Shown: one piece after another, positions 31,914 through 34,800 of the stretch
Numbering within the stretch: position 1 is the first letter of the stretch
Layout: every line of letters begins with the position of its first letter
Made by a program: the position numbers and the translations under genes
Notes under the pieces: model-generated
Seen by the model: only the letters and a program-made list of their open reading frames with translations
The model's database searches: none
Told to the model about the DNA's origin: nothing
Sequence record: MN850566.1
Strand: one strand, 5' to 3'
From: Escherichia phage garuso
DNA length: 64,000 bases

Positions 31914-32199
31914 CGTTAAACTCTCTGACGAAGAAATAGTTGACTTTGTTATTACCTACCATAAGGTCAAAGCAGGTATTCTCAAAAGGTTTGTTGTAGG
32001 CATCATATGAAACATATGGGTCAGCTACTTGCTTAGTGCTTAACTTCTTACTTGATGGGTTTAAGAGGCCACCATACAGCTTCTTGATAGACTCTTCTAC
32101 AACAGACCAGATGATTTCGTCAGTAATTTCTTCGTACAGGTCAAGTTCACGCTCTAGTGAGAAGTCACAAATAGGGAAAATAACCTGTACTTTACTCAT
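31906..32199 (-). CDS. Hypothetical protein (97 aa)
   Basis: Track ORF, minus strand. Confidence 0.45.
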   Translation of the reverse strand: MSKVQVIFPICDFSLERELDLYEEITDEIIWSVVEESIKKLYGGLLNPSSKKLSTKQVADPYVSYDAYNKPFENTCFDLMVGNNKVNYFFVREFNDE

Positions 32200-32594
32200 T
32201 AGCGAATGACCTGTGTTACCTGAATAGCTTCAGTTACTGACAAATCACCAACCGTTTCTTCTTTGACGAAGGTGAAGGTAAGTTCAACAGGCTCTTGTTC
32301 TTCCTGCTCAACCGGAATACCGTTAAGCTCATCAAAGATTGATTGAGTTGTCCAGTCTTCTCCACCATCTGGGTAGTGGATTGCGTAAAGTGGAAACTCT
32401 AAATTATACCAAGCAAAAACAGGGCAACCATCTGCATCATCTCGACATCTGTGGAGACATGTGTTTGTACCTTCAAAATGCAAATGGAGATTACCATTCT
32501 TCTCAAATAGAAGAGCATCTTGCAGGTCTAGTTCCTCATTTTCGCTGTAACGGCTGACATCAACCTTAACATGGATATGACTGTTATTATTCAT
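32199..32594 (-). CDS. Hypothetical acidic protein (131 aa)
   Basis: Track ORF, minus strand. Confidence 0.45.
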   Translation of the reverse strand: MNNNSHIHVKVDVSRYSENEELDLQDALLFEKNGNLHLHFEGTNTCLHRCRDDADGCPVFAWYNLEFPLYAIHYPDGGEDWTTQSIFDELNGIPVEQEEQEPVELTFTFVKEETVGDLSVTEAIQVTQVIR

Positions 32595-33003: not shown

Positions 33004-33030
33004 TAAAAAAGGCTCCCGAAGGAGCCTATG
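33004..33030 (-). terminator. Intrinsic terminator downstream of the endolysin gene
   Basis: Minus-strand reading gives GGCTCC-TTCG-GGAGCC followed by TTTTTTTATTTT. Confidence 0.6.
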
Positions 33031-33036
33031 AAGATA

Positions 33037-33501
33037 TTACTTTGGATATACACTGTCAAGATAAATGTCAGCTTCCATTCTACGTCTGTTTTTCAGGCCG
33101 TTTGAAGTGACCTTCTTACCTTTCACTGTAACCTTGTTCCACCACTGCATAGCTTCTGCACAACCTACCTTATTACCAGCATTGTGGCGCTTGATAAATG
33201 TAGAATCCTGCATAGCTGTGATGCCGATGTTGTATGTTTCACTTACAAGTGCATCAAACTCGTTCTGAGAAGTTGGAACCTTGATGGCTTTGTTCACTGC
33301 TGCAACGAACTTTTCAACATCTGCAAGAAGATACTGTTCAGCTTGTTCAGCGGTAATCTTCATACCCATCTTAACAGGCTTCCCACCAATACGAATTGTC
33401 CCATACCCGATTGTAGGGATTCCGGCAGAGTCTTCGTAAGCCTCTAACTTCAGACCTTCGAAGAACTTAATAGCATCTAAACCTTTTCTTGAGAGTTGCA
33501 T
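33037..33501 (-). CDS. Endolysin, T4-lysozyme-like (glycoside hydrolase family 24)
   Basis: 154-aa ORF with the phage-lysozyme N-terminal signature (…FFEGLKLEAYEDSAGIPTIGYGT…); minus-strand terminator hairpin plus T-run immediately after its 3' end. Confidence 0.8.
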   Translation of the reverse strand: MQLSRKGLDAIKFFEGLKLEAYEDSAGIPTIGYGTIRIGGKPVKMGMKITAEQAEQYLLADVEKFVAAVNKAIKVPTSQNEFDALVSETYNIGITAMQDSTFIKRHNAGNKVGCAEAMQWWNKVTVKGKKVTSNGLKNRRRMEADIYLDSVYPK

Positions 33502-34385
33502 TATGCCTCCCCTGCTGGATTAACTGTAACTGTTGCTGCATTAGATGTTACAGAGCCACCTGCGCCAGTAACTACACAGGTGTAGCTTCCTGAATCAGCA
33601 GCGGTTGCACCTTCTTTGGTGTAGGTTGCAGTAGTTGCATCGAGGATGTCTTCCTCATCTTTCTTCCACTGATAACCTGTTGCACCTGTTGCCACAACAT
33701 TCAACGTTAAGGTCTCACCTTCATTGATTTCTTGATTGGTTGGCTGTTGAGTGATGACAGGAAGTGCATTCACAGTCACTGTTGCTGCATCTGAGGTAAC
33801 ACTTGTTCCACCCTCTCCAGATACAACACAAGTGTATGAACCAGCATCAGAAGGTGCTACTGACTGTTTTGTGTAAGTTGCAGAATTGGCACTAGGGATG
33901 TCCTCACCATCCTTCTTCCACTGATATCCAGTGGCGTTAGTTGCTAGAATGCTTAGAGTAAGTGTGCCACCCTCATTGACTGTTTGACCTGTCGGTTGCT
34001 GAGTAATTGCTGGTGGCTTAATAGCATCCTTCAACTTAGCATTCAACATTGAGAACGGCTTAACTCTTGCCAACCATTCACAGTAAATTGTGTCAACATC
34101 TTTACCATTGATGATTGCATACTGCAAATCCATGAAGAAATCAGCAGTTCTCATCTGTGCACCAACACTGTAAAGCAATTCATCACTAAATGGAACTTTG
34201 TAGTCTGGTTTGTAGTCAAACTTCTCAACTTCTGCAATATCAGCTTCAGGCCAATATGAACTATAGGTAAGTGGTAAAATAGCCTCTTGATATGTTCTAA
34301 AATCATACCTCTTACCAGCCTTTACATTTGCAATGAAACCCTTCACAAACTCTTTGAAGTCTGGGTAAGTCTTTGCTTTAATCAT
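33501..34385 (-). CDS. Protein with two tandem Ig-like domains
   Basis: Two ~95-aa internal repeats (ITQQPT…NEG.TLTL…ATGYQWKKD.EDI…ATYTK…GSYTCVV.G.GG…SDAATVTVN); N-terminal domain is paralogous to the downstream 123-aa ORF. Confidence 0.55.
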   Translation of the reverse strand: MIKAKTYPDFKEFVKGFIANVKAGKRYDFRTYQEAILPLTYSSYWPEADIAEVEKFDYKPDYKVPFSDELLYSVGAQMRTADFFMDLQYAIINGKDVDTIYCEWLARVKPFSMLNAKLKDAIKPPAITQQPTGQTVNEGGTLTLSILATNATGYQWKKDGEDIPSANSATYTKQSVAPSDAGSYTCVVSGEGGTSVTSDAATVTVNALPVITQQPTNQEINEGETLTLNVVATGATGYQWKKDEEDILDATTATYTKEGATAADSGSYTCVVTGAGGSVTSNAATVTVNPAGEA

Positions 34386-34753
34386 TTCTTTTTAGCCTCT
34401 AAATGTGCGTTTAGTCTAAAATAACCTTTGTGATGCGGAGATACATCACCAACAACAATACCTTTAACCTTATAGCCTTTACCAATTACATACTGGATAT
34501 CCATAAGGAATCTTCCAAGTCCAACAATATGGAACATTGGATATAATAGGTTCTCAGAATCTGGAATATTGATTTCAGGTTTGTAGGTACGCTGTTCGAT
34601 TGTTGGTGTAATATCTTCTTCAGGCCATTTGCTGAGTCTCCATGTCAAAGGTGTTGGGATAACATCATTAAGGTTGTACCTTTCACCATTTTGCACGGAA
34701 TTGATATAGGATTGTAGGAAGCAATAAAAGTCTTTTGCACTCTTAGCTTTCAT
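34382..34753 (-). CDS. Hypothetical protein, paralogue of the N-terminal domain of the Ig-like protein
   Basis: Shared motifs with 33501..34385 (AK..DF..F…I..V..G.RY, WPE.DI, YKP….P.S..LLY, F.MD.QY.I). Confidence 0.5.
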   Translation of the reverse strand: MKAKSAKDFYCFLQSYINSVQNGERYNLNDVIPTPLTWRLSKWPEEDITPTIEQRTYKPEINIPDSENLLYPMFHIVGLGRFLMDIQYVIGKGYKVKGIVVGDVSPHHKGYFRLNAHLEAKKK

Positions 34754-34800
34754 TAAATATCCTTATAAATAGTTAAAGGGGCATCAGCCCCTATTCACAC

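Follow-up and report, generated by a model that had tools for sequence, protein, structure and literature searches.

A stand-alone paralog of the capsid-binding domain is encoded beside the predicted hexamer decoration protein of Felix O1-like phages

Cryo-electron microscopy (cryo-EM) of phages Bas63 and Sf14 has revealed a decoration protein that sits as a monomer at the centers of capsid hexamers, where its first ~118-120 residues fold into a capsid-binding domain (CapBD) from which a variable number of Ig-like domains project outward (PMC12609058, PMC11821841). This protein occupies only the 60 hexamers that adjoin pentamers (quasi-3-fold) in the T=9 head and leaves the true-3-fold hexamers unbound (PMC12609058, PMC11821841). 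In Sf14, Arg79 and Arg107 of the decoration protein gp20 are salt-bridged to Asp221 in three major capsid protein subunits, and the hexamer decoration protein (Hex-Dec) is kept off the true-3-fold hexamers by the displacement of Asp221 at those sites (PMC11821841). Here, we describe the corresponding locus in a 64,000-nucleotide stretch of DNA from Escherichia phage garuso (MN850566.1; hereafter the window), in which a 123-amino-acid open reading frame (ORF), referred to as SA, a 294-amino-acid ORF, referred to as HD, and an endolysin ORF follow one another on the minus strand in the order of transcription. The window region is 96 to 99.5% identical to many Felixounavirus genomes, with Escherichia phage bumzen as the top match; the window genome is that of a Felixounavirus (Felix O1-like), and the gene order at the locus is the same in Felix O1. 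The two proteins and their domains are placed as follows.

34382..34753, minus strand: SA, stand-alone CapBD paralog (Felix O1/FO1a gp37, Bas63 gp125, PHROG 4463)
33501..34385, minus strand: HD, predicted hexamer-center capsid decoration protein of the Hex-Dec/Sf14 gp20 type, 294 amino acids, with two Ig-like domains (PDB 9ncf_S and 9c2d_S; PHROG 3995)
34020..34385, minus strand: CapBD of HD, residues 1-122, including R79 and R107; gapless alignment to Sf14 gp20 residues 1-102 and onward
33765..34016, minus strand: Ig-like domain 1 of HD, residues ~124-207 (Pfam Ig_3/I-set)
33513..33764, minus strand: Ig-like domain 2 of HD, residues ~208-291 (Pfam Ig_2/I-set at 209-288)

A sequence search of the PDB matched HD over residues 1 to 290 to the Bas63 "immunoglobulin-like domain protein" (9ncf_S; E=5.8e-248) and, over the same residues, to the Sf14 "tail protein" gp20 (9c2d_S/9c3a; E=7.4e-165). 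The CapBD and first Ig-like domain of HD are nearly identical to those of the Bas63 and Sf14 decoration proteins, with more than 95% identity between the CapBDs of HD and Bas63 Hex-Dec, and both arginines, R79 (QMR79TADF) and R107 (LAR107VKPF), are present in HD and conserved in all aligned HD sequences. HD also matches PHROG 3995 (1e-171). A preliminary description of this DNA, made from the sequence alone, had proposed two Ig-like repeats in the 294-amino-acid protein, and Pfam places both (Ig_3, 3.5e-23; Ig_2; I-set); the two repeats are 68% identical at the protein level and 66% identical at the DNA level. The length of HD varies among loci (210, 294, 377, or 461 amino acids), corresponding to one to four Ig-like domains. 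A 209-amino-acid HD homolog (P0078) departs from the Ig frame after ~residue 157, suggesting a frameshift or an assembly error. HD is almost certainly the hexamer-center capsid decoration protein of Felixounavirus, a protein that is already known and structurally characterized, in its two-Ig form; given the CapBD identity to Bas63 Hex-Dec, we infer that it would bind as a monomer at quasi-3-fold hexamer centers. Of the two surface-exposed functions first suggested for this pair, adhesion or decoration, the matches to 9ncf_S and 9c2d_S thus point to hexamer decoration, and the domain that the two ORFs share is a capsid anchor rather than an adhesion module.

The HD gene has been recorded as a tail gene, and the authors of the Bas63 study call the "tail protein" annotation of the Hex-Dec gene incorrect. 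In Felix O1, it is the "gp36 major tail protein," which was found in virions by proteomics. We considered and rejected an identity as a tail protein or "HK97 major tail subunit" (the label of PHROG 3995), since the PHROG tail hits cover the Ig region only, with the major-tail-protein profiles 158, 853, and 3575 matching HD residues ~96-208 and nothing else, and since the homologs of HD are located on the capsid. The "tail protein" annotation of HD should therefore be replaced by that of a hexamer capsid decoration protein. The same label has also been carried over to SA, both in UniRef and in the manual annotation of PhageMaP.

The preliminary description held that SA shares a domain with the N terminus of HD through a local duplication followed by divergence, and the comparison bears this out. 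The only significant PDB sequence matches of SA are the CapBDs of 9ncf_S and 9c2d_S; SA has the CapBD fold, its fold matches are likewise limited to the 9ncf and 9c2d structures, and the two-lobed fold appears complete in the predicted model. Thirty-one alignment columns, mostly hydrophobic or aromatic, are invariant between SA and the CapBD of HD, among them the motifs WPExDI, LLY, FxMDxQY, and KxxxxLNAxL. SA is assigned to PHROG 4463, which is of unknown function, and it has no Pfam, NCBIfam, or PADLOC family match. The C-terminal Ig-like domains are absent: the ORF ends 3 to 5 residues past the CapBD and contains no Pfam domain. All 51 SA homologs that we found are 88 to 124 amino acids long, and those longer than 104 amino acids are full-length CapBDs. 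SA is a genuine tandem paralog of the HD CapBD alone, derived from an old duplication; in the literature searched, we found no description of this CapBD-only paralog.

The residues that SA does not retain include both arginines that contact Asp221 in Sf14. The position of R79 in HD is Gly78 in SA (HIVGLG), and this glycine is invariant across every SA copy. The position of R107 is His107 in the SA of the window and Gln in most SA sequences, being Gln or His throughout the cultured genera; within the SA family, an Arg occurs there only in P0097, a divergent protein from an uncultured phage. The net charge of SA also drifts, with a pI that spans 9.1 to 5.1 among lineages.

To follow the locus across relatives, we used a set of 28 loci, comprising the window and 27 IMG/VR contigs. 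The SA ORF is intact in all 28, and its ATG start and AAGGA Shine-Dalgarno sequence are kept in each of them. The pairwise ratio of nonsynonymous to synonymous substitution rates (dN/dS) of SA is 0.12, with a median dS of 0.71, compared with 0.045 for the HD CapBD, 0.11 for the first Ig-like domain, and 0.07 for the endolysin; nonsynonymous evolution is 2.7 times faster in SA than in the HD CapBD. These rates indicate that SA is under purifying selection. At a threshold of at least 60% identity, SA is found in 233 of the 252 phage records that carry the locus, and these span Felixounavirus, Mooglevirus, and Suspvirus, whereas the single Kolesnikvirus locus that we inspected, that of Hafnia phage SPARTY, lacks SA and carries one CapBD-Big_2 gene ahead of the endolysin. 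From this distribution, we conclude that the SA/HD duplication is older than the divergence of Felixounavirus, Mooglevirus, and Suspvirus from one another. A neighbor-joining tree, built without support values, groups the Kolesnikvirus CapBDs with the HD clade and not outside both paralogs. The CapBD family is narrow, as a profile built from both paralogs retrieved only 12 clusters among 1.84 billion representative proteins; these include a divergent stand-alone protein (P0097, 122 amino acids) and a divergent HD (P0098, 298 amino acids), both uncultured, and in other clusters the CapBD is joined to a Big_2 domain, another Ig-type domain, or a Lys/Ser-rich tail.

Two of the records that match the family are unusual. 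Salmonella phage GE_vB_B3 (MG969406, 109 kb) has three CapBD-matching places, and a Felix O1-type SA-HD locus lies at 142318-143558 of "Staphylococcus phage SA1" (GU169904.1, 147 kb), which is probably a chimeric or contaminated assembly.

Selection notwithstanding, SA can be lost. One sublineage shares an SA pseudogene remnant in which the start has been lost, ~225 bp have been deleted, and frameshifts have accumulated. Phage REP9 is one of the natural phages that lack SA. In Bas63 (MZ501086, located by tblastn), SA is bas63_0125, adjoining bas63_0124 (Hex-Dec) and bas63_0123 (endolysin), and the PhageMaP knockout screen recovered viable Bas63 g125 mutants (10.1101/2024.10.10.617714). In the PhageMaP scores for strain S17-1, g125 stands at +0.16/+0.52/+0.26, compared with -0.23/-0.11/-0.15 for g124 and -1.41/-0.30/-1.02 for the major capsid protein; the scores for another strain are noisy, and, according to the study, g124 matters more on S17-1 than on three other strains. 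SA is thus very probably a CapBD paralog that is maintained by selection and yet dispensable.

No published data set available to us places SA in the virion. Felix O1 virion proteomics detected gp36 (HD), and gp37 (SA, numbered as in FO1a) is not among the detected proteins. The available text of the VpaE1 liquid chromatography-tandem mass spectrometry study names only gp54, gp58, and gp68 beyond the Felix O1 set and does not name SA (gp40 by accession order). Both Sf14 and Bas63 encode SA, and in the cryo-EM studies of these phages, no density is described for the hexamers that lack Hex-Dec; neither paper models SA or mentions a paralog or duplication (PMC11821841, PMC12609058). We also considered whether SA could be the helix-rich trimeric tail-tip density of Bas63 and Sf14 (PMC12609058); nothing supports this assignment, and we give it hardly any weight.

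Taken together, we consider it on balance probable that HD is the decoration protein and that SA is a CapBD-only paralog with an assembly role off mature heads. The CapBD of HD would anchor the protein at the hexamer center, with the two Ig-like domains projecting outward as in T4 Hoc. SA would keep the CapBD fold without the Asp221-contacting arginines, of which R79 is replaced in all copies and R107 in those of the cultured genera. Because of these replacements, and because neither virion proteomics nor capsid maps have shown SA, we infer that it no longer sits at the Hex-Dec site on mature heads. It may instead influence the assembly of heads or of their decoration within the infected cell, for instance by binding hexamer centers or Hex-Dec transiently or weakly and so modulating loading. 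This last part, an intracellular assembly-modulating role, is tentative and has somewhat less than an even chance of being correct.

Several points weigh against this account. HD is intact in the lineages without SA; therefore, HD does not need SA. The argument from contact residues concerns two residues named in one paper, not a computed interface, and the AlphaFold2 model of SA is moderately confident, with a predicted local distance difference test score of 69. Late expression of the SA, HD, and endolysin genes is assumed from gene content. The proteomic negatives are weak, as a 14-kDa protein at 20 or fewer copies is easily missed on gels, and the VpaE1 proteomics used 30-kDa filters for filter-aided sample preparation, which weakens the negative for a protein of this size.

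SA could alternatively be on the head, as a minor virion protein that forms a blank plug at the 20 true-3-fold hexamers or that occupies some sites at low occupancy. SA retains the complete two-lobed CapBD fold, with 31 columns invariant with HD, and it overlaps the HD start and shares the HD operon; moreover, Asp221 is displaced at the true-3-fold hexamers, and SA has changed exactly the two positions that contact this residue. Its absence from the data would be explained if a monomer on the symmetry axis were averaged out and a low-copy 14-kDa protein escaped proteomics. Three-fold-averaged density on an axis would normally remain visible, however, and both cryo-EM studies report the other hexamers as being without density, the Sf14 study also having a 4.5-Å asymmetric map. 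SA is also not reported in the Felix O1 virion proteome or in the available part of that of VpaE1, and it has been lost without loss of viability. We therefore regard a place for SA on the mature head as improbable. Quite improbable, too, is a division of the hexamers between the two proteins, with Hex-Dec on the 60 quasi-3-fold hexamers and SA plugging the 20 true-3-fold hexamers or immature heads, in which case SA would have been overlooked through symmetry averaging and its small size; if true, this would be a duplicated decoration-protein pair that reads quasi-equivalent hexamer conformations. In another reading, SA took on a role away from the capsid, such as an interaction with a host or defense component, and kept only the CapBD scaffold. 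This would suit the loss of R79 in every SA and of R107 in the cultured genera, the 2.7-fold higher nonsynonymous rate relative to the HD CapBD, and the wide drift in net charge (pI 9.1 to 5.1). The authors of PhageMaP made a gp125 expression construct alongside counter and trigger candidates, and g125 is, by elimination, probably one of six candidate defense triggers, but only g40 and g123 are reported as validated triggers. SA has no PADLOC, Pfam, or NCBIfam match that would link it to such a role, and its tight, conserved overlap with the HD start argues for a linked function; a role away from the capsid is thus unlikely, though it deserves serious consideration.

Dispensability in the laboratory and one loss in nature could mean that SA has no function and is a remnant of the duplication in slow decay, but the gene is intact in 28/28 loci and in 233/252 records over three genera, its dN/dS is 0.12 at a dS of about 0.7, and its ribosome-binding site and start codon have been kept; once free of selection, SA decayed rapidly, with loss of the start, a ~225-bp deletion, and frameshifts. 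We rejected a decaying pseudogene on the dN/dS value and the 28 intact ORFs, and a leftover without function is very improbable. Alternatively, a programmed -1 frameshift at the A_AAA_AAG-like run before the SA stop might join SA to HD, yielding a protein with two CapBDs followed by Ig-like domains. In the window, GCT AAA AAG AAA TGA would let a ribosome slip by -1 into the frame of HD at a point downstream of the TAA in that frame. The AAAAAG run is missing, however, from Mooglevirus- and Suspvirus-type junctions (GCTAAGAAATGA, GCTAATAAATGA, GCTAATAAAAATGATTAA) and from two Felixounavirus loci (GCTGAAAAG), the P-site codon would need to re-pair with UAA, and HD has its own ribosome-binding site and start, its model in the capsid maps beginning at Met1. 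We rejected the fusion, to which we assign next to no probability, since the motif lacks conservation beyond most Felixounavirus loci.

The other elements of the locus are as follows.

33037..33501, minus strand: endolysin (GH24 phage lysozyme; Pfam Phage_lysozyme, 6.7e-41), last gene of the putative SA-HD-lysin unit
34760..34764, minus strand: Shine-Dalgarno-like AAGGA, 6 nucleotides 5' of the SA start codon, invariant in 28/28 loci
34778..34791, minus strand: conserved GGGGC-loop-GCCCC hairpin, followed by a T-rich tract (hairpin and tract together, 34766-34791), between the upstream 196-amino-acid gene and the SA ribosome-binding site
33010..33027, minus strand: predicted intrinsic terminator 3' of the endolysin, AGGCTCCTTCGGGAGCCT then TTTTTATTTT (terminator scan)

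In the window, the SA stop and the HD start share 4 nucleotides (ATGA), and the endolysin start overlaps the HD stop (TAATG); the overlap between the SA stop and the HD start is 4 or 8 nucleotides in 28/28 loci. The terminator after the endolysin is strong, and the same element is annotated as a terminator in phage Barry. Because of the gene overlaps and this strong intrinsic terminator, SA, HD, and the lysin gene look like one transcription unit. Upstream of SA, the stem of the hairpin is kept in nearly all of the 28 loci with a variable loop (TGAT, TAAT, GAAA, and others), and the hairpin is also kept in genomes that have lost SA. The terminator scan of the window did not flag it. In Mooglevirus-type loci, the hairpin resembles a classic terminator (GGGGCGAAAGCCCC TTTTATTTTG), and loci L004-L033 have a hairpin in the equivalent position; to judge from this conservation, it is probably a terminator or an RNA end.

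Three neighboring genes were also compared with those of Bas63. The endolysin gene (33037-33501, minus strand) is the counterpart of Bas63 g123, one of the two validated triggers in PhageMaP, which would not be expected of a lysozyme. At 32199-32594 (minus strand), a 131-amino-acid ORF has a homolog labeled "D-alanyl-D-alanine carboxypeptidase" in bumzen and in the PhageMaP table (Bas63 g121), a label that looks like a propagated annotation. The 471-amino-acid ORF at 36464-37879 (plus strand) is a homolog of Bas63 gp130, relatives of which are annotated as DUF2828 or "RNA-binding protein," and in both Felix O1 and Bas63 its gene lies immediately upstream of the tRNA cluster. According to the PhageMaP preprint, Bas63 gp130 is Ro60-like and acts as a counter to the ppl defense system that is transferable to T7 (10.1101/2024.10.10.617714).

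SA would represent a natural, display-less copy of a capsid anchor that selection has kept beside the full decoration gene over three genera. If SA still binds capsid protein hexamers, it would reveal how a decoration protein tells quasi-equivalent hexamers apart, and it could provide phage display with a minimal anchor on the heads of Felix O1-type phages, which are used in Salmonella diagnostics and biocontrol. If SA does not bind, it would be a clean case of a structural domain recruited to a nonstructural role. In either case, the protein is experimentally very tractable.

Among known systems, HD is closest to Bas63 Hex-Dec (bas63_0124, 9ncf chain S) and Sf14 gp20 (9c2d/9c3a chain S), with which it forms one family that is collinear from residue 1 and shares R79 and R107, the I-set Ig repeats, and the position adjacent to the endolysin. 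It differs in having two Ig-like domains, whereas Bas63 has four and Sf14 has three, and variants with one to four are already documented. SA, unlike Hex-Dec and Sf14 gp20, has no Ig-like domain, and other residues stand in place of R79 (in all copies) and of R107 (in the cultured genera). The decoration protein has been likened to T4 Hoc, which is also a hexamer-center monomer with a small capsid-binding domain and a projecting Ig-like string, is nonessential, and has been linked to adherence and aggregation (PMC12609058, PMC11821841). In Hoc, however, the capsid-binding domain is C-terminal, so that the order is reversed, and the CapBD is, according to the Bas63 authors, larger, topologically distinct, and pseudo-C2 symmetric (PMC12609058). 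The Ig region of HD matches the PHROG "Hoc-like head decoration" profiles, and Hoc chains are absent from both the PDB sequence matches and the fold matches of SA; the resemblance to T4 Hoc is functional and limited to the Ig-like domains. We know of no stand-alone paralog of the Hoc capsid-binding domain. The Ig-like domains of HD also resemble the C-terminal Ig-like domains of many siphophage major tail proteins. In Kolesnikvirus, the CapBD-Big_2 proteins (Hafnia phage SPARTY_111 and the BIG2 protein of Erwinia phage phiEa104) have a homologous N-terminal CapBD (profile E=1.8e-10 and 2e-7; Foldseek probability, 1.0), and SPARTY_111 lies directly upstream of the endolysin, in the same position as HD, with a Big_2 display domain in place of the I-set domains of HD.

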